From Prochlorococcus marinus str. NATL2A (GTDB taxonomy: Bacteria > Cyanobacteriota > Cyanobacteriia > PCC-6307 > Cyanobiaceae), in assembly GCF_000012465.1 (NCBI RefSeq), contig NC_007335.2, positions 1,500,001 through 1,532,000 of the forward strand: DNA of 32,000 nt, in the 5' to 3' direction. Shown in pieces: positions 24,580-32,000 of the stretch (position 1 is its first letter; every line of letters begins with the position of its first letter). The notes below the pieces were generated by a model that was given only the letters and a program-made list of their open reading frames with translations, was not told where the DNA came from and made no database searches. The translations under genes and the position numbers were made by a program.

Positions 24580-25326
24580 ATGACTTCTACTGCTCCCAAT
24601 GAGAATATTAAGGATAATTTAAAAGATCAAATTTCTTGCAAATTAGTCTCAGAAATAATTCGCGAACGTATACAAGCAAAAGGAGCTAGATTCCATGCAA
24701 ATGATAATATTTCTGATTTCATTCAGCCAGGAGAACTAGAAACTCTAGAAAGAGAAGTTGCCACCAGAGTTAGAGATTTGCTGAAAACTTTATTGATTGA
24801 TGTTGATAATGACCACAACACTCAAGAAACTGCAGAACGCGTTTCTAGAATGTATCTAAATGAAGTATTTAAAGGCAGATATCACCCTCAACCTAAAGTT
24901 ACTAATTTTCCTAACGATAGGAATTTAGATGAGATCTATACACTTGGACCAATAACTGTTCGTTCTGCATGTTCTCATCACTTTGTTCCAATTCTTGGAG
25001 ACTGCTGGATAGGAATAAAACCTGGAGAAAAAGTTATTGGGATATCTAAATTTGCAAGAGTAGCTGATTGGGTCTTTTCTAGGCCACATATTCAAGAAGA
25101 AGCTGTCATGATTCTTGCTGATGAAATAGAGCGATTATGCGAACCCAAAGGTCTAGCGATACTTGTTAAAGCTCAACATTATTGTATGAAATGGCGCGGA
25201 GTCAAAGAGCCTGAAACCAGCATGATCAACTCAATCGTTAGGGGTGATTTTCGCCATGATGCAAGCTTGAAGCAGGAGTTCTTCGAACTTGTTAAGCAAC
25301 AATCCAATTTCGGTAAAAATTATTAG
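24580..25326 (+). CDS. folE: GTP cyclohydrolase I (FolE type)
   Basis: 248-aa ORF with FolE-type blocks (...ETAERVSRMY..., CSHHFVPI compare CEHHxxP, QHYCMKWRGV compare QHxCMxxRGV). Confidence 0.9.
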   Translation: MTSTAPNENIKDNLKDQISCKLVSEIIRERIQAKGARFHANDNISDFIQPGELETLEREVATRVRDLLKTLLIDVDNDHNTQETAERVSRMYLNEVFKGRYHPQPKVTNFPNDRNLDEIYTLGPITVRSACSHHFVPILGDCWIGIKPGEKVIGISKFARVADWVFSRPHIQEEAVMILADEIERLCEPKGLAILVKAQHYCMKWRGVKEPETSMINSIVRGDFRHDASLKQEFFELVKQQSNFGKNY

Positions 25327-25389: not shown

Positions 25390-26619
25390 CTAGAAGTTAA
25401 AAGTGGTTTTCACCAAAGCCCCATTTACTTCCTCTTTACCATCTTTCTCGATAACAAAGATCGCTGGGGTGACTGTGAGACTATCGCTAACTTTAAAATC
25501 GTAAAAAGCTTCCCAAGCTAAAGGATCGTCATAACCACTGTCATTTCTATGAGTTTCTGCTGTTCCAATACCAAAACCAAACTTATTGCCTTCAATCAAG
25601 GCGTTATTCCATAAAAATCCAATAGACCATGTCTTTCCATCTTCAACTTTATTCATAGAAGTATCAGGACTATCATCGTTTTCAGGATTCTTCCATCCTA
25701 TTCCTCCACTCAAGCTGTAGTCGTCTCCAAATTGATAGCTACCACTGACCCCGAAAGAGGAGTAGTCGTTAATATCAGGAGAATTGTCAGTTCTCCCGTT
25801 GTCAGACTGTGTGAATGCAGCTGCAAGAGTATATCTCTCATCAACCCATGCCAACTGAGTAGTGATGTGGTCTTTACCTTCATCAGCTAAAAAGCCAATC
25901 GAAGAGTTTGACGCGTCTTCTGAAACGAAAAGTGCAGAGGCAACTAATTTTTCATAGGACCAAGTAATTCCAGCGCCCGCACCCATCTTCTTGGAATAAG
26001 TATCATTCGCACCTGCCTGATTCAAGACAAACAAAACTCCATCACTTGGGTAAGCACTAGGCCAAACTCCAAGCAAATCATCTTGGCGGAGCTTGGGACC
26101 AAAAGTTACTTGAATATCATCTCCAACAGGGAACTGATAATAAGCCTTATGAAGTTCCAACGAATCACTACTACTGAAAGCAGTATCTAATCTTGCCTCA
26201 CCCATCATTCCAAAGGGTTCCATCATGCCAAAATTGCCAATGCGAACAGCAGTTTTAAGCATGTCTTGACCTGTGAAACTGGTCATAAACATTAACTTTG
26301 TATCGTAATGAAAAACTGTTCCATCCTTTTCGTCAGAAGGAGACATTCCGCCCATTCCACCCATTCCACCCATTCCAGAATCGCTCACGCCATCTACTCC
26401 ACCCAAAACAAAAGTCGTTTTACCCATAAACATAGTTGAGGGGTATGAATCTCCCATATTCATATGACTACCATGGTGATCATGATGACCTTGGTGCTTT
26501 TCACCTCCTGCTTGAACAGCAATTGGAGTTATGAAGCCTAAGACAGCAGGGATTGAGATTAATTGAGCAAAGAGTCTCATAGACCTTATAAGACTAGTAA
26601 AACTAGTAAAGCTATTCAT
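25390..26619 (-). CDS. Putative outer-membrane beta-barrel porin with a His/Met-rich mature N-terminus
   Basis: 409-aa ORF. The signal peptide MRLFAQLISIPAVLGFITPIAVQA|GG suggests the real start may be the second Met at 26580. Much of the sequence is Gly/Asp/Ser/aromatic-rich with alternating hydrophobic residues, and it ends with the OMP-type terminal Phe (...VKTTFNF). No SLH domain is evident. Residues 41-92 read KHQGHHDHHGSHMNMG...GMGGMGGMGGM. Confidence 0.6.
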   Translation of the reverse strand: MNSFTSFTSLIRSMRLFAQLISIPAVLGFITPIAVQAGGEKHQGHHDHHGSHMNMGDSYPSTMFMGKTTFVLGGVDGVSDSGMGGMGGMGGMSPSDEKDGTVFHYDTKLMFMTSFTGQDMLKTAVRIGNFGMMEPFGMMGEARLDTAFSSSDSLELHKAYYQFPVGDDIQVTFGPKLRQDDLLGVWPSAYPSDGVLFVLNQAGANDTYSKKMGAGAGITWSYEKLVASALFVSEDASNSSIGFLADEGKDHITTQLAWVDERYTLAAAFTQSDNGRTDNSPDINDYSSFGVSGSYQFGDDYSLSGGIGWKNPENDDSPDTSMNKVEDGKTWSIGFLWNNALIEGNKFGFGIGTAETHRNDSGYDDPLAWEAFYDFKVSDSLTVTPAIFVIEKDGKEEVNGALVKTTFNF

Positions 26620-26874
26620 GTCTCGTGAAACTAGCTTCTCAGGCTTGTTAAAGGTATAGAATGTGTGCTTTTTGATACAAAGAATCGTATTTTTAGTCTT
26701 TGCCAGGAAGAAACTTAGAACTAATTTCCATCAAAATCTAGTCTCAAAAAGAAGAGATAAAGAATAGTTGGATTGTTTAATTACTTATCTGTTCTAGATT
26801 GTCTGAAAGATTCAATGACAAAGCTCTAGGCTTAATTAGTCTAAAGACTAGGTTTACTAGCCAAAAATAGATAA

Positions 26875-27132
26875 ATGAACAAATTCAAGCCTATTCTCTC
26901 TACAATTATTCTTTCTATATCATTTTCACTAATAGGATGTTCAGATAATTCTCAAACAAAAGGTACTCCCTCTCTTTTTGAGACAAAAATAGAAGCCGAA
27001 AAAGCAGCCAAGGAGTTCAATTGCACTGGAGCTCATAAAATGGGTGACAAATGGATGCCTTGCAAAAGTCATTCTGCTCATGAGGATAAAGAACATAACA
27101 AGTCCAACAATGAACATCACCATCATCACTAG
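26875..27132 (+). CDS. Small lipoprotein with a CxGxHKMGxxWMPCxxH module (DUF3721-like, from memory) and a C-terminal HHHHH tail
   Basis: 85-aa ORF. The signal peptide ends in the lipobox SLIG|C (Cys22). The mature part contains LFETKIEAEKAAKEFNCTGAHKMGDKWMPCKSH followed by SAHEDKEHNKSNNEHHHHH*. The module recurs in the next gene. Confidence 0.75.
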   Translation: MNKFKPILSTIILSISFSLIGCSDNSQTKGTPSLFETKIEAEKAAKEFNCTGAHKMGDKWMPCKSHSAHEDKEHNKSNNEHHHHH

Positions 27133-27147
27133 ATTTTCGAACAATAA

Positions 27148-27591
27148 ATGACAACCAAAAATAGTACAAATCAAAAAGATATCGAAGCACCTTCGCATTG
27201 TGGAAGCAAACCAAAAAAAATTGCATTTGGCATAGCACCACTTGGATTCATTTCCATTGGAATTGTTCCCATGGGTATTGTTAGCATTGGAATTGTTCCC
27301 ATGGGTGTCGTTTCTATTGGTGCTGTAGCCATGGGAGTAATAAATGCCTCAATAGTAGGAATGGGAATATTTTCTGCCGGAATAACAACCATGGGTCTAA
27401 AGGTATGGAGTCCAGAAAACAATGCTATTCAGGAGTCAATCAATCGCTCTAATTCTTCGTCTTCAAAAAATATATATGCATATCCAACTAAAGCTCAGGC
27501 AGAGAGCGAAGCCAAAAAGATCGGATGCAATGGGGTCCATAAGATGGGTAAATTATGGATGCCTTGTGCAATCCATATCAACCCTAACTAA
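27148..27591 (+). CDS. Membrane protein: a hydrophobic (G-x4)n repeat region followed by a second CxGxHKMGxxWMPCxxH module
   Basis: 147-aa ORF starting 15 nt after the previous stop codon, so probably in the same operon. Residues 28-83 have Gly at nearly every fifth position. The C-terminus (AYPTKAQAESEAKKIGCNGVHKMGKLWMPCAIH) matches the module in the upstream gene at 17 of 33 positions by my hand alignment. That match supports the + strand as coding rather than the antisense ORF 27171..27422. Confidence 0.7.
   Translation: MTTKNSTNQKDIEAPSHCGSKPKKIAFGIAPLGFISIGIVPMGIVSIGIVPMGVVSIGAVAMGVINASIVGMGIFSAGITTMGLKVWSPENNAIQESINRSNSSSSKNIYAYPTKAQAESEAKKIGCNGVHKMGKLWMPCAIHINPN
27229..27396 (+). repeat. 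In-frame 15/30-nt periodic repeat encoding GIVPM/GIVSI-type pentapeptides
   Basis: Peptide: G IAPLG FISIG IVPMG IVSIG IVPMG VVSIG AVAMG VINAS IVGMG IFSAG ITTMG. At the DNA level the 22-mer cattggaattgttcccatgggt occurs twice, 30 nt apart (27256-27277 and 27286-27307). Confidence 0.85.
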
Positions 27592-27723: not shown

Positions 27724-28341
27724 CTAAGAATATATATCTTCAACTAAAATTGGCCCCTTTTCGCAAATTTGCTGCTGTGAAGGGAACTCTTTATCGGAGC
27801 AACAACATTCTCCTCTATCTGAATTGTTGATCCAATTAATAATCCCTGTTCGGATTGGTTGAGGACATACGTCTCCTTCTTTGAGGTGATTAATTTCTTC
27901 GCTTGTTAAAGGATCAGCATGTTCAATAAAAAGAGACTCTTTAAGTCTAAAAGAACATGTCTCATCCCATTGTTCAAAACAATTTATATGGTTTATAAAA
28001 TCATTCCATGCCTCTTTCATTGATCTATATCCCTTTCTTTTTAATTCTTTTTTAAAAACAGCTTTGATAAATTCATTAAAATTTTCTAATTCTTGAGATG
28101 TAAAAGGTTGAGTTCTTTGAGCTTTAAGTGCTGGCAATTGAAGATTATTTTCAATTAATTGAAGCCTTTGTTCAATTGTTTGAAATCTAGAATCTATCGA
28201 TTCAACAGGAAGGTTCTCTATTTGATTAACAAAACAATCAGAGACAAAACCAACCAATGATTTACCAGAAATCCTGGCACTCTCTTTAATCTTTTCTAAG
28301 AGTTTTGGATCAATACTTACATTAAGTTGCGTTCTCTTCAT
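27724..28341 (-). CDS. Hypothetical protein with a ribbon-helix-helix-like N-terminus, a coiled-coil segment and a Cys-rich C-terminal domain
   Basis: 205-aa ORF. The N-terminus KRTQLNVSIDPKLLEKIKESARISGKSLVGFVSDCFVNQI fits the strand-helix-helix pattern of CopG/Arc/MetJ-type RHH domains. Residues ~50-70 are heptad-like (IDSRFQTIEQRLQLIENNLQL). The C-terminal half has 7 Cys (NCF, ETCS, DVCP, GECCCS, QICE) and 3 His. Coding status is fairly secure; the function is not. Confidence 0.65.
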   Translation of the reverse strand: MKRTQLNVSIDPKLLEKIKESARISGKSLVGFVSDCFVNQIENLPVESIDSRFQTIEQRLQLIENNLQLPALKAQRTQPFTSQELENFNEFIKAVFKKELKRKGYRSMKEAWNDFINHINCFEQWDETCSFRLKESLFIEHADPLTSEEINHLKEGDVCPQPIRTGIINWINNSDRGECCCSDKEFPSQQQICEKGPILVEDIYS

Positions 28342-28499: not shown

Positions 28500-29285
28500 C
28501 TAATTACTCCTTGGAAGCAAGATCAATGAAATTACACAAAGAACACTAATAAGTGGGCCTGGAGGCAAATTCATAAACATAGAGAACGAAAAACCAATGA
28601 TCGATAAAACTAATCCAAATATGGAAGATCTAACCATCGCAACCCATAGAGAGCTAGCTTTCTGTAAACCCAACAAAGTTGGAGTTGAGAGTAACGCAAT
28701 CACAAGGATGACCCCGACTGCTGACATTGAGCTCACAATGACAAGTGCAGTGGTAAATCCCAGAGCTAAATTTAAAAAAGACACATTAACTCCACTTGAG
28801 GCAGCTCCTTCTGGGTCTAAACCAATATGAACAAGCTTGTCGTACCCAAAAAGCATTAAGCAAATGAATGCCGAGAACGCAATCAAAGTTCTTAATAAAT
28901 CGCTCAAATTTGCAGTTAATAAATCTCCAAACAAAACAGCCTCTAAATCAATCCTGATTCCAAGTAAAGGTATAAGCAAAACTCCAAGTCCCATCGAACC
29001 AGCAAGAATTGTATTCATTACAGCTTCATAATTTTGATTTTTCTTATTTGTCAAACTCTCTGCTGCAATAGCTCCCACTAATCCGCTTAAGACACCTCCA
29101 ATAGATGGGTCAATCCCAAGCGCCATAGCCAAGGCAAGTCCTGGCAAAACACAATGTGAAATTAAATTGACTTGAAGAAGCCTTTTGTGAGTGATCAATA
29201 CAGTTCCCATAGCAGGGCAAAGTATTCCTGAAAAGGAAGTTATCAAAAGAGGAATTATCCACCAATTTGTATTGAAAAAAGACAT
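28500..29285 (-). CDS. znuB: Zinc/manganese ABC transporter permease (ABC-3 family), ZnuB-like
   Basis: 261-aa polytopic membrane ORF with ABC-3-type sequence (...EAVLFGDLL...). It sits with the ATPase, the substrate-binding protein and a Fur-family regulator. Confidence 0.9.
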   Translation of the reverse strand: MSFFNTNWWIIPLLITSFSGILCPAMGTVLITHKRLLQVNLISHCVLPGLALAMALGIDPSIGGVLSGLVGAIAAESLTNKKNQNYEAVMNTILAGSMGLGVLLIPLLGIRIDLEAVLFGDLLTANLSDLLRTLIAFSAFICLMLFGYDKLVHIGLDPEGAASSGVNVSFLNLALGFTTALVIVSSMSAVGVILVIALLSTPTLLGLQKASSLWVAMVRSSIFGLVLSIIGFSFSMFMNLPPGPLISVLCVISLILLPRSN

Positions 29286-29302: not shown

Positions 29303-29743
29303 ATGGTCAGTAAGAGAGATCAAGTTAAGATCTTGCTAATGAGTACAAGCAAGCCTGAAATCACTAAACGACAACAACAACTGCTCAATGAACTCAAGAA
29401 CTGTACTGATGAATTGAGCGGGCAAGAGCTGCATAGACAACTTCATAATGGTGAAAAGGCAATGGGACTGACCACGGTCTATCGAAACCTGCAAGCACTA
29501 GTAAAGCAAGGTTTGATTCGTTCCAGACATCTTCCCAACGGTGAGGTTCTTTATGCGCCCGTTGAAAGAGATATACATCATTTAACTTGCGTAAGCTGTG
29601 GAGAAACCACACGCTTGAAGGGATGTCCGGTCAAAATGATGGATCTGTCGAAAAACACCTCTAAAAACTTTGAGCTTTTGTTTCATACTCTTGAGTACTT
29701 TGGTCTCTGCCAAACTTGTTCTCAGCAATTGAATGCTGGATAA
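29303..29743 (+). CDS. zur: Fur-family metalloregulator, probably Zur
   Basis: 146-aa ORF with a winged-helix region (LTTVYRNLQALVKQGLI), an HHLTCVSCG motif and a second CxxC (LCQTCS), which together would form a Cys4 structural site. Calling it Zur rather than Fur or PerR is inferred from its position inside the znu cluster. The start could instead be Met13 (29339). Confidence 0.8.
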   Translation: MVSKRDQVKILLMSTSKPEITKRQQQLLNELKNCTDELSGQELHRQLHNGEKAMGLTTVYRNLQALVKQGLIRSRHLPNGEVLYAPVERDIHHLTCVSCGETTRLKGCPVKMMDLSKNTSKNFELLFHTLEYFGLCQTCSQQLNAG

Positions 29744-29766: not shown

Positions 29767-30462
29767 CTATAACTTCCACCTCAAATAATTAATTGAACTA
29801 AGTTTTTCTTGAACTTCCTGAGGGCTACCAGAAGCCAAAATAATTTTATCTAAAGCAACAACCTTGTCATAGGCATTTAAAGATGTTCCCCAGTCGTGAC
29901 TACTAACAAAAACCGTGAACCCCGAATCGGCTAGCTGACGAATAATTAACAGGAAATCTTCTTTAGCCGGAGGATCAAAGGCGGAGCAAGGTTCATCAAG
30001 AAGAAAAATTTTGGCTGGATTCATTAATGTTTTTGCAAGTAATGCTCTTTGTTGCTGTCCACCAGACAGAGCATCAAGTCTCCTTTTTGCTAAATGAGAT
30101 ATTCCAACACGTTGAAGAGCCGCTTCTAATTCACAACAAGTCGATTTCGAATGATTGACTCGGCCCAAAGAAACTAATCCTTCAACAGTAATTGGAAAAT
30201 TCCAATTGAGCTTCCCCCTCTGAGGCATTAAAGCCACTTGAGATCGATTATTTCGCAATGGTTTCCCATCAACAGTAATTTCCCCTTGATTCGGTTTACT
30301 ACTCCCTTGCAGCAAGCTTAATAATGTGGACTTACCAGCACCATTCGGACCAACAAGAGCAGTCAAAGTACCTTGCTCAAGCTTTAGAGAAACCTTGCTT
30401 AAAGCAGGTTTAATTTTACTTGAATAAGAATATGTCAAATTTTCAGCAATCAAGCTAGGCAT
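29767..30462 (-). CDS. znuC: Zinc/manganese ABC transporter ATP-binding protein, ZnuC-like
   Basis: 231-aa ORF with Walker A (GPNGAGKST), the ABC signature (LSGGQQQR) and Walker B (IFLLDEP). Confidence 0.9.
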   Translation of the reverse strand: MPSLIAENLTYSYSSKIKPALSKVSLKLEQGTLTALVGPNGAGKSTLLSLLQGSSKPNQGEITVDGKPLRNNRSQVALMPQRGKLNWNFPITVEGLVSLGRVNHSKSTCCELEAALQRVGISHLAKRRLDALSGGQQQRALLAKTLMNPAKIFLLDEPCSAFDPPAKEDFLLIIRQLADSGFTVFVSSHDWGTSLNAYDKVVALDKIILASGSPQEVQEKLSSINYLRWKL

Positions 30463-30512: not shown

Positions 30513-30531
30513 TGAAAATGATTATCGTTTT
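30513..30531. promoter_or_regulatory. Fur/Zur-box-like palindrome in the divergent znuC/znuA intergenic region
   Basis: TGAAAAT-G-ATTATCG (30513-30527) matches the classical 7-1-7 box TGATAAT-N-ATTATCA at 12 of 14 positions. In a second register, AAAATGAT-T-ATCGTTTT (30515-30531) has arms that are complementary at 7 of 8 positions. It lies 12-24 nt upstream of the candidate znuA starts. Confidence 0.5.
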
Positions 30532-30542
30532 AGATACGCTTT

Positions 30543-32000
30543 GTGTTTTTAACGTTGAATTTTTCAAATCAGTCCAAAAAGGTTAAACCCATAATCAATA
30601 AAACAGTTCTCAAAAGTTCTCTTGTTGCTGGAGCATTTTTATTTTCTGGAATCAATCAGACAGCGCAAGCAAATACAAAATCAATTGTTGCTGTAGAGCC
30701 ATTGGTTTGCGATGTTGTATCTGCGATTGCACCACCCTCTACGCCCGTGACCTGCTTAATTGACAGAAAGCAAGATGTTCATGATGTCAAGATCACTCCA
30801 AGGCAAGCTCAAACACTAAAAAGTGCGAATCAAGTATTTACTCTTGGTTCAGAGATGACCCCTGCAATTAAAAAATGGTTGGATAATCCTTTAACTGTTG
30901 TCGTTGGTGTAAGTGCAATAGAAATAGACGATCATGACGACCACGATGATCATGACGATCATTCAGCTGCTAAGCATGATGATCATGACGACCACGATGA
31001 TCATGACGATCATTCAGCTGCTAAGCATGATGATCATGACGACCACGATGATCATGACGATGCCCATGGAGAGGGAGCTTTTGAATGGGCTGGTGTTTTT
31101 GATCTTTCCGCAGGAGTCTACAAATGGTCTTTCGCCAAAGTTGATGGAGACTATGCTGATCCTGCGATGAAAATGGTTATTCTTAAGTCTGGTGATATTG
31201 AAGCATCAGAAGAGCTTGCTAAAGAATTATTAGGATCCAAAAATTCAGAAGTTAAGCGCAATAATGACAAACTTATTGCGCAGGACAAAGCCTACCTTCT
31301 TACATTTAATGAAAAGAAAGACATCACAACATTTACTGTAGAAATCAAAAAATCTGGTAAATACGCTTTCTTTACTGAGCATATGCCGTTTGAGTTTGAA
31401 GCCGATGAACATTTCTTTAAAGATGTTTCAGGCGACGATGTGGAACCGATTTCCCAAGTACCAGATGAAGGAGATCATCATCACCATGACCATGGAGGCT
31501 TAGATCCTCATATTTGGCATGATCCACATAACATCATCAAGATGGGAAATGTAATTTCTAAAAATATCAACAAAAAGATTTCATTCTTTGATAGAGAAAC
31601 TAAAAAAGTTTTAAAAGAAAGAACTCAATCTGTAAATTCCATTTTGAAAGATCTAGATCAATGGACTCAAGAACAAATAGCTACTATTCCTTCTGATCAA
31701 AGGACGATGGTTTCTAAGCACAAAGCCATGGAATATTATGGAGATGCATTTGGATTGAAGACCATGAGCCTACTAGATTTTCTTGGTGATTCATCCAGCC
31801 TTAGGCCTCAAACTATTTCAACTGTATTAGCTGAGCTTAAAGAAGAAAACGTGAAAGTTTTATTCGCTGAGCAAAAGCCTCCTTCAAAGCTATTGAGAAA
31901 CCTCAGTAGACAAACTTCCACTCCTATCGCATCAAATCAAATCTATGTTGACGGTCTAATGCCAACAGGGAATACTGTTTCAGTTGCTGTACATAACACC
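30543..32000 (+). CDS. znuA: Periplasmic zinc-binding protein ZnuA (cluster A-I substrate-binding protein) with a greatly enlarged His/Asp-rich loop; 3' end runs off the window
   Basis: Absent from the ORF track because there is no stop before position 32000. Hand translation in the frame of 30543 is open to the window end: (GTG)FLTLNFSNQSKKVKPIINKTVLKSSLVAGAFLFSGINQTAQA|NTKSIVAVEPL...VHDVKITPRQAQTL...(HDD)n...GLDPHIWHDP...SKHKAMEYYGDAFGL...VLFAEQ.... It has a signal peptide and ZnuA-type ligand motifs (HD, DPHIW, and the HxAxxYxxxxFGL region). In-frame stops lie at 30513, 30519 and 30531, and no ATG is available, so the start is GTG 30543 or TTG 30555. Confidence 0.85.
   Translation, partial: MFLTLNFSNQSKKVKPIINKTVLKSSLVAGAFLFSGINQTAQANTKSIVAVEPLVCDVVSAIAPPSTPVTCLIDRKQDVHDVKITPRQAQTLKSANQVFTLGSEMTPAIKKWLDNPLTVVVGVSAIEIDDHDDHDDHDDHSAAKHDDHDDHDDHDDHSAAKHDDHDDHDDHDDAHGEGAFEWAGVFDLSAGVYKWSFAKVDGDYADPAMKMVILKSGDIEASEELAKELLGSKNSEVKRNNDKLIAQDKAYLLTFNEKKDITTFTVEIKKSGKYAFFTEHMPFEFEADEHFFKDVSGDDVEPISQVPDEGDHHHHDHGGLDPHIWHDPHNIIKMGNVISKNINKKISFFDRETKKVLKERTQSVNSILKDLDQWTQEQIATIPSDQRTMVSKHKAMEYYGDAFGLKTMSLLDFLGDSSSLRPQTISTVLAELKEENVKVLFAEQKPPSKLLRNLSRQTSTPIASNQIYVDGLMPTGNTVSVAVHNT
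30930..31061 (+). repeat. Perfect 51-bp in-frame tandem repeat (2.6 copies) inside znuA, encoding DHDDHDDHDDHSAAKHD
   Basis: The unit gatcatgacgaccacgatgatcatgacgatcattcagctgctaagcatgat occupies 30930-30980 and repeats identically at 30981-31031. Its first 30 nt repeat again at 31032-31061. Confidence 0.95.

Follow-up and report, generated by a model that had tools for sequence, protein, structure and literature searches.

A conserved DUF3721 gene pair beside the zinc-uptake locus of Prochlorococcus marinus NATL2A encodes candidate extracytoplasmic metal-handling proteins

Two adjacent DUF3721 genes

We analyzed a 32,000-nt stretch of the Prochlorococcus marinus str. NATL2A genome (NC_007335.2, positions 1,500,001 to 1,532,000; hereafter, the window), in which two adjacent plus-strand open reading frames (ORFs), ORF A and ORF B, lie close to genes for zinc uptake. 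ORF A (26875..27132, 85 residues) encodes a putative DUF3721 lipoprotein precursor, and ORF B (27148..27591, 147 residues) a probably membrane-associated DUF3721 protein. Only 15 nt separate the ORF A stop from the ORF B start, and the two genes are probably co-transcribed as one operon. A preliminary description of this DNA, made from the letters alone, had reported a shared 33-residue block with 17 identical positions; the ORF list and a recount bore this out, the alignment being gap free and its identical columns including the C, G, H, K, M, G, W, M, P, C, and H given there. The family named in that description was also the right one. Against a gathering threshold of 27 bits for PF12518 (DUF3721), ORF A scored 69.9 bits (E = 1.5e-19; residues 35-67 on model positions 1-33 of 33) and ORF B 66.3 bits (E = 2e-18; residues 112-143 on model positions 1-32 of 33). 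Since each protein alone matches the family above threshold, the similarity between the two blocks reflects homology beyond chance. Each carries a WMPC motif. Both are ordinary members of a family that already has a name and no assigned function; one ORF A orthologue is annotated as "DUF3721 domain-containing protein / Protein family PM-24."

The ORF A protein starts with MNKFKPILSTIILSISFSLIGC and ends in NNEHHHHH. As read from the sequence, its signal peptide and lipobox (26875..26940, +) consist of MNKFKPILSTIILSISFSLIG followed by the cysteine that closes the L-I-G-C motif at residues 19-22 (Cys22). The lipobox, sought as [LVI][ASTVI][GAS]C at the end of a signal peptide, was found in ORF A and in 112 of 120 of its orthologues (LIGC in 72, LMGC in 32), and ORF A is thus a predicted lipoprotein. 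The DUF3721 domain proper (residues 35-67, LFETKIEAEKAAKEFNCTGAHKMGDKWMPCKSH; 26977..27075, +), delimited by the Pfam match and the AlphaFold model, is followed by a His-rich tail (SAHEDKEHNKSNNEHHHHH; 27076..27129, +) that, like the linker, is disordered in the model. At least three consecutive C-terminal His residues occur in 103 of the 120 orthologues, with a median of 7 His within the 22 residues past WMPC; family-wide, at least three His follow the domain in 34 of 150 representatives. Within Prochlorococcus, ORF A orthologues are 64 to 97% identical. Both the lipobox and the His tail singled out in the preliminary description are therefore present and conserved.

ORF B carries its DUF3721 domain at the C-terminal end (residues 112-144, AYPTKAQAESEAKKIGCNGVHKMGKLWMPCAIH; 27481..27579, +; AlphaFold, with the Pfam match covering 112-143). 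Upstream, residues 25-86 (27220..27405, +) form a very regular 10-residue hydrophobic repeat of the type GIVPMGIVSI, preceded by KPKK, with a mean Kyte-Doolittle value of 1.78, Gly at 28, 33, ... 63, 73, 78, and 83 (every 5 residues), and Met at 42, 52, 62, 72, and 82 (every 10 residues). AlphaFold models this segment at a predicted local confidence (pLDDT) of ∼40 and assigns it no secondary structure, helices included. The hydropathy fits membrane anchoring, as had been proposed, but the Gly-x4 periodicity is atypical of transmembrane helices. ORF B also matched the Pfam GLTT repeat (PF01744; 63.8 bits, gathering threshold 21). We set aside this match and the pentapeptide ones as signs of shared function, regarding them as compositional likeness of a Gly-rich hydrophobic repeat. 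In some genomes (L079, L084, and L096), a third gene, located downstream, encodes the ORF B-type repeat alone, without a DUF3721 domain.

The DUF3721 domain and its candidate ligands

An exhaustive profile search of 1.84 billion proteins returned only 381 DUF3721 cluster representatives at 50% identity. In both window proteins, AlphaFold predicts a β-hairpin preceded by a short strand and a helix of 10 residues, with pLDDT values of 82-88 for the ORF A domain and of 78-85 for the same helix-hairpin in ORF B. Foldseek retrieved nothing from the PDB at E<1; the best hits (E 1.2, probability 0.30) were defensin/toxin mini-folds that share the topology alone. A cysteine-stabilized alpha/beta fold of the defensin/scorpion-toxin kind was rejected on that E value of 1.2 and on the presence of two Cys only, none of them in the helix. 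The family also includes variants on the same theme: some members have two or three tandem domains, two lipoproteins of ∼400 residues (P0242 and P0243) carry acidic "YMPC" versions, and a single secreted protein holds three copies (L083, 9653-10132) in a metagenome-assembled genome labeled Asaia bogorensis, which may be a binning contaminant.

Conservation was scored in the 150 best representatives, which together contain 166 copies of the domain and form a set biased towards the query. Cys20 and Gly22 were each retained in 165 of 166 copies and Cys33 in 162 of 165, followed by His24 (158/166, ∼95%), Trp30 (154/166), Met31 (149/165), Met26 (147/166), Pro32 (146/165), and His36 (135/166, 81%). 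Essentially invariant across the family are thus Cys20, Gly22, and Cys33 only, with Trp-Met-Pro present in ∼90% of the copies; the Cys pair is the sole universal candidate ligand. The helix alanines are nearly invariant as well. In the predicted topology, the two Cys sit at the base of the hairpin, and the candidate ligands follow one another as C-x3-H-x8-C-x2-H. Positions 24 and 36 covary: 128 of 159 copies have His at both, and divergent copies, from the copper operons described below, combine Phe with Phe/Ile/Leu, Phe with Glu, or His with Glu. On account of this covariation and of the predicted topology, residues 24 and 36 would be in contact and would share a site with the Cys pair, which suggests a single Cys2His2 site.

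Such a site recalls zinc knuckles, zinc ribbons, and Cys2His2 fingers, with which it would share a tiny domain and a Cys-x3-His ... Cys-x2-His tetrad on a β-hairpin. Zinc ribbons are known to have degenerate copies in which hydrophobic residues replace the ligands, and degenerate DUF3721 copies likewise swap candidate ligands for hydrophobic residues. However, fingers and knuckles differ in that they show beta-beta-alpha or CxxC arrangements instead of the C-H-C-H order and the strand-helix-hairpin of DUF3721, whose cyanobacterial copies, moreover, are predicted to be extracytoplasmic. None of the zinc-finger Pfam families matched ORF A or ORF B. A classical Cys2His2 finger or knuckle was consequently rejected on ligand order, predicted fold, and the lack of a Pfam match and of a PDB match at E<1.

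The conservation pattern could also be that of a module that binds no metal itself, with the two Cys forming a structural disulfide and the domain docking onto CopM, ZnuA, porin, or PepSY-like proteins, in which case ORF A would hold metal through its His tail alone. We consider this rather unlikely. It would explain why only Cys20, Gly22, Trp30-(Met31)-Pro32, and Cys33 are common to all subfamilies and why His24, Met26, and His36 can each be replaced (by Phe, Asn, and Phe/Glu, respectively) in copper operons. The near-invariant helix alanines and the aromatics resemble a packing core, the topology is like that of disulfide-stabilized mini-folds (the Foldseek resemblance being not significant), the cyanobacterial copies are exported as judged from lipoboxes and signal peptides, and ORF B has no His tail. 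On the other side stand the frequencies of His24 and His36 and their covariation as a pair, to which genomic context and phage proteins add, as shown below.

Genomic contexts of the family

The preliminary description had placed the pair beside znu/zur genes, and these are indeed its neighbors. Downstream of ORF B lie znuB, an ABC-3 permease (28500..29285, -; PF00950, 149 bits), the Fur-family regulator gene zur (29303..29743, +; PF01475, 64.5 bits), the ABC ATPase gene znuC (29767..30462, -; AztA/ZnuC-type NCBIfam matches), and znuA (30555..32000, +; PF01297, 150 bits), which runs off the window end and has a (DDHDDHDDHDDHSAAKH)-type repeat plus an inserted domain. This zur/znu gene order is that of Prochlorococcus zur-znuABC clusters (PMC3323870). 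Between its two lobes, ZnuA contains three (DDHDDHDDHDDHSAAKH)-like repeats (∼30925-31060), then an insert of ∼110 residues of unknown fold, and then GDHHHHDHGG.

GTDB species genomes were scanned with a single pattern, MG[DK][QKL]WMPC, which yielded 246 stretches, almost all from Prochlorococcus, Synechococcus, and Cyanobium; context counts derive from 80 loci. In 61 of these, an ORF A-type gene is followed immediately by an ORF B-type gene, and the pair is thus a conserved unit. The 22 loci of the window clade read porin, divergent A-B, a ribbon-helix-helix gene, znuB, zur, znuC, Zur box, znuA, and COG0523. Other zinc-linked orders are DUF3721-znuB-zur-znuC-znuA-cobW-HupE (L117), znuC-znuB-A-B after two znuA genes (L118/L119), and, at the P0400 locus, znuA, divergent A-B, a Cu/Zn-efflux-like permease, and a TIGR03943 subunit, with a Fur gene further along. 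A HupE/UreJ gene directly adjoins the pair in 8 loci, and znu genes lie 3 to 8 kb away in several more. Among the 44 well-flanked pair loci, i.e., those with at least 5 kb on each side, znuA/B/zur genes occur within 10 kb of the pair in 23, and the count rises to 29 when any one of znu, zur, HupE, and COG0523 within that distance is accepted. All six zinc-context copies examined retain the full C-x-G-x-H-x-M-G-x-x-W-M-P-C-x-x-H. Family neighborhoods had been named beforehand as a place where a metal link might fail to appear; instead, znu, zur, COG0523, and HupE recur in several orders, and a sister subfamily resides in copper operons.

Several of these loci deserve mention in their own right. 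The COG0523/CobW-type GTPase gene (Pfam, 207 bits) that follows znuA in the 22 window-clade loci (e.g., L042, 15482-16864) bears a long insert; lying past the right end of the window, it matches the zinc-linked COG0523 branch 1a (PMC3323870). In five loci (L040, L069, L079, L084, and L085), a HupE/UreJ-family permease gene (Pfam, 57 bits) directly adjoins the DUF3721 genes, within ∼1 kb of the pair, with znu not adjacent, and L079 has in addition a ZnuA-like gene 2 kb from them. At L120 (1349-3006) and P0400, the gene after A-B encodes a PF03773 permease with distant similarity to the SO_0444 Cu/Zn efflux family, and that for the TIGR03943 permease subunit comes next, with the Fur-family gene downstream and znuA divergent upstream.

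The sister subfamily, recognizable by a C-terminal "...LHKALQ" helix, is encoded in operons of a different kind, made of MerR (or ArsR), a CopM-like DUF305 protein, one or two DUF3721 proteins, and a PepSY_TM-like membrane protein of ∼100 residues, often beside a Cu P1B-ATPase (TIGR01511, 580 bits), DUF411, and a multicopper oxidase. This arrangement occurs in ∼20 metagenomic loci, where it is invariable (e.g., L112, 7663-8500; L115, 6559-8581; L121-L136); the metagenome scan, saturated by a low-specificity pattern, gave at least 17 loci. CopM has been shown experimentally to be a periplasmic copper-binding resistance protein (PMC4335983). The copper-context copies are of two types, KC[KS]GAFAMG..WMPC without His, and GCKGTH.NNGLWMPC..E, in which His24 is retained and Met26 is gone. 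A rule by which His2 goes with znu and Met2 only with cop was dropped for this second type. What holds is that copper-context copies are without the full His pair, which accompanies zinc-uptake neighbors. The family is thereby tied to transition-metal homeostasis in two independent ways, through zinc-uptake genes and through copper operons; the tracking of znu context by His at both positions is also a point against the disulfide module. The window pair resembles the CopM operons through this sister gene, which comes directly after the CopM-like gene together with MerR/ArsR, the Cu P1B-ATPase, and the multicopper oxidase. It differs from them in that it is not in such an operon, retains both His, and has zinc-uptake neighbors; DUF3721 is, besides, unrelated in sequence to DUF305. 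The CopM-DUF3721-PepSY-like copper operon appears to be undescribed in the literature we searched. Prochlorococcus also has a third DUF3721 paralogue (...LELGCIGTHKNQDKWLPCENEKQLHKYLRK), which at L055 (15712-16254, -) and L073 (12456-12956, -) is paired with an 88-residue PepSY_TM-like protein in a two-gene layout equal to that of the copper operons, with no copper genes near.

These operons raise the alternative that the metal is copper, with His54, Met56, and Met61 (Trp60 nearby) or the Cys pair of ORF A binding Cu(I), the neighboring porin and the lipoprotein managing copper entry or detoxification in an organism sensitive to copper, and the znu adjacency being secondary. CusF and PCuAC have Met/His periplasmic Cu(I) sites whose residue types are similar to those of DUF3721. 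Likewise, OprC is reported to bind copper at a CxxxM-HxM site by Cys, His, Met, and Met (PMC11836926), and the CxxxHxM...WM of DUF3721 would offer Cys, His, Met, Met, and Trp. This likeness extends to ligand types only: the fold and spacing of DUF3721 differ from those of CusF, PCuAC, and OprC with no homology detected, neither ORF A nor ORF B has a Pfam match to the CusF or PCuAC families, and the predicted fold is not OB- or cupredoxin-like. The best-conserved context of the family, i.e., MerR-CopM-DUF3721-PepSY-like with the Cu ATPase and the multicopper oxidase, the ∼90% conservation of Met26 and Met31, and the L120 permease, with its distant kinship to a Cu/Zn efflux family, are further points in favor of copper. 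However, CopA, CopM, multicopper oxidase, and MerR were not detected near picocyanobacterial A+B pairs, around which znu, zur, COG0523, and HupE recur, and the copper-context subfamily is exactly the one short of His. Poly-His tails such as that of ORF A are also more typical of Zn/Ni/Co handling. We judge copper in place of zinc to be unlikely, but a contender to be taken seriously.

The porin gene of the window (25390..26619, -) is transcribed divergently from the pair and encodes a protein without an SLH domain that matched OprB and por_somb weakly. Its N-terminus is His rich (HQGHHDHHGSHMNMG / GGEKHQGHHDHHGSHMNMG) and then Met rich (GMGGMGGMGGM). MGGM repeats and His clusters, a composition typical of copper-binding segments (PcoB/CopB and Ctr1 N-termini), speak for the copper alternative. 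In 25 loci, a porin gene is found no more than 3 kb from the pair; the His/Met-rich N-terminus is retained in Prochlorococcus porins adjoining the pair, and the more distant neighbor porins are of the ordinary SLH type. Just upstream of the porin gene lies a gene for a FolE-type GTP cyclohydrolase I (24580-25326, +), an enzyme class that depends on zinc. The equivalent position beside znu is taken at L117/L118 by a PTPS (QueD-like) gene and a HisI gene.

On the other side of the pair, a 205-residue ribbon-helix-helix protein, RHH205 (27724..28341, -; weak RHH_1, DUF6364, and YlcI matches), combines an N-terminal ribbon-helix-helix (MKRTQLNVSIDPKLL) with a Cys/His-rich C-terminal domain. Its motifs H..CF..W, LF..H, C..P.RTG.INWINN, and C.C (GECCCS in the window) are at least 90% conserved. 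Neither a Pfam family above threshold nor a relative in the PDB was found for it. RHH205 travels with the pair in 29 loci, some of them without znu, and is a candidate local regulator that may act as a NikR-like metal sensor. A Zur box (AATGATTATCGTT, 30517..30529, unstranded) lies in the znuC-znuA intergenic region with one mismatch to AATGATNATCATT, the cyanobacterial Zur box consensus core (PMC9337993), and was present in 25 of 25 orthologous intergenic regions. Zur-box-like matches of the form CATGATGATCATG were rejected as His-Asp codon repeats of the porin and znuA genes.

Thirty-one IMG/VR loci also encode the domain. Most of the copies are inserts in 370- to 570-residue proteins with an XkdF-type (Peptidase_S78_2) prohead protease domain, found on uncultured phage contigs (L001-L025; e.g., L004, 4515-5612), and a few are small secreted proteins. 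Isolate-phage relatives of the carrier proteins have Limnohabitans, Nonlabens, Roseobacter, and haloarchaea as hosts, and the BFVD matches are uncultured Caudovirales. The cyanophage link mentioned in the preliminary description could not be confirmed: viral copies came from uncultured phages, and neither the window domain nor the phage-type domain found a convincing match by tblastn among 50,697 isolate phage records. That description had also asked whether phage copies keep the C/H/M positions. They retain Cys-His-Cys plus His/Glu/Asp, except that one of the two copies at L027 is without His and Met. Because the prohead-protease fusions are cytoplasmic, where a disulfide is unlikely, this retention mildly favors a metal-stabilized site over a structural disulfide.

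A possible role in trace-metal acquisition

We tentatively favor, at somewhat short of an even chance, the reading that ORF A and ORF B bind metal outside the cytoplasm as accessory proteins in trace-metal acquisition, the metal being most likely zinc. ORF A would be lipid anchored, with Cys50, His54, Cys63, and His66 forming one Cys2His2 site, and its flexible poly-His tail would capture or hand over metal. ORF B would hold another domain copy, attached to a membrane segment of Gly/Met repeats, and A, B, the His/Met-rich porin, and RHH205 would together relay metal from the outer membrane to ZnuA/ZnuBC or buffer it in between. DUF3721 is accordingly proposed, on comparative-genomic grounds, as a good candidate for a new periplasmic metal-handling domain. 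There is a precedent for such a role in another DUF family, that of Zcp (DUF4198), a periplasmic zinc-capture partner of ZnuABC (PMC12663993). ORF A and ORF B share several features with ZinT, AztD, and Zcp: they are small and presumably exported, their genes lie next to znu/zur, they have His-rich segments, and they are proposed to deliver metal to ZnuA. Unlike them, they show no sequence relation to these proteins (no Pfam/NCBIfam match), have a far smaller fold (33 residues) with two Cys among the candidate ligands, and are without an upstream Zur box. A bolder version, which we hold to be unlikely, would make DUF3721 an unrecognized extracytoplasmic mini-metallochaperone, a 33-residue Cys2His2 "periplasmic knuckle" whose ligands are tuned for zinc uptake or copper resistance, with a porin-A-B-RHH relay feeding ZnuABC at picomolar metal in picocyanobacteria, which have no TonB-dependent receptors.

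Several observations weigh against a zinc-binding accessory pair. The Cys2-His2-Met2 module put forward in the preliminary description stood in part only: Cys20 and Cys33 are essentially invariant and His24 reaches ∼95%, but the full set is not family-wide, as copper copies are without one or both His and, in one type, also without Met26. Since a subfamily that drops His24, His36, and at times Met26 keeps the fold signature, the residues that all copies share could form a core with a structural role only. In the oxidizing environment of the periplasm, a conserved pair of Cys is more often found as a disulfide, and zinc is usually bound there through His/Asp/Glu. A search of the PDB with the family profile found no matching chain, and a literature search for DUF3721, PF12518, or "family PM-24" found no paper. 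The pattern used in the genome scan biases the sample to the picocyanobacterial type, Prochlorococcus genomes are syntenic so that their loci are not phylogenetically independent, and about one-third of the well-flanked pairs lie in variable islands with no metal gene within 10 kb. Finally, the 255 bp upstream of ORF A (26620-26874) contain no Zur box, and boxes with up to two mismatches lie upstream of the pair in 8 of 65 loci, which equals chance (background, 0.26 per kb). The sequence therefore gives no support to direct Zur control of the pair, and this absence would suit the copper alternative. In the znu cluster of Synechococcus WH8102, synw0968, synw0972, and synw0973 are Zur-repressed and uncharacterized (PMC9337993). 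Given the znuC-znuB-A-B order at L118, synw0968 would be the likeliest of the three to encode a DUF3721 protein. The searched literature yields nothing on synw0972/0973 beyond that report and no Prochlorococcus metal-stress expression data for the DUF3721 pair.

Part of this evidence would also agree with the absence of any metal role, the pair then encoding small surface or envelope proteins of a hypervariable island family (e.g., in phage interaction or envelope structure) that are next to znu in one syntenic Prochlorococcus clade only. Many pairs do have as neighbors small ORFs that are unrelated and little conserved, genes for glycosyltransferases, and Nif11 peptide genes; phage genomes have the domain in structural/protease proteins; a solo ORF B-like paralogue occupies a conserved nonmetal context in 9 loci; and the missing Zur box would be expected. 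However, the znu linkage recurs in distant picocyanobacteria with different gene orders, and this variation argues against mere inherited synteny. HupE/UreJ genes adjoin the pair elsewhere, the sister subfamily is invariably in copper operons in its ∼20 loci, and the His tail, the His/Met-rich porin, and the Cys-rich regulator travel with the pair. We therefore regard the lack of any metal role as very improbable.

The association of DUF3721 with loci for zinc and copper has apparently not been described in the literature searched. Should the domain turn out to be a disulfide adaptor, what would be left are two unremarkable members of a DUF family already known. The analysis brought up further candidates, namely, the His/Met-rich porin, the Cys-rich ribbon-helix-helix protein, and the CopM-DUF3721-PepSY-like operon. 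The family bears on how Prochlorococcus and marine Synechococcus take up zinc at picomolar concentrations while avoiding copper, organisms for which a route through the outer membrane has not been identified (PMC3323870). If DUF3721 proteins were periplasmic metal carriers, they would supply a missing part of this uptake and add a minimal fold to those known to bind metal, besides offering a simple case of a ligand switch, with His present beside znu and absent beside cop, on a protein of 60 residues.

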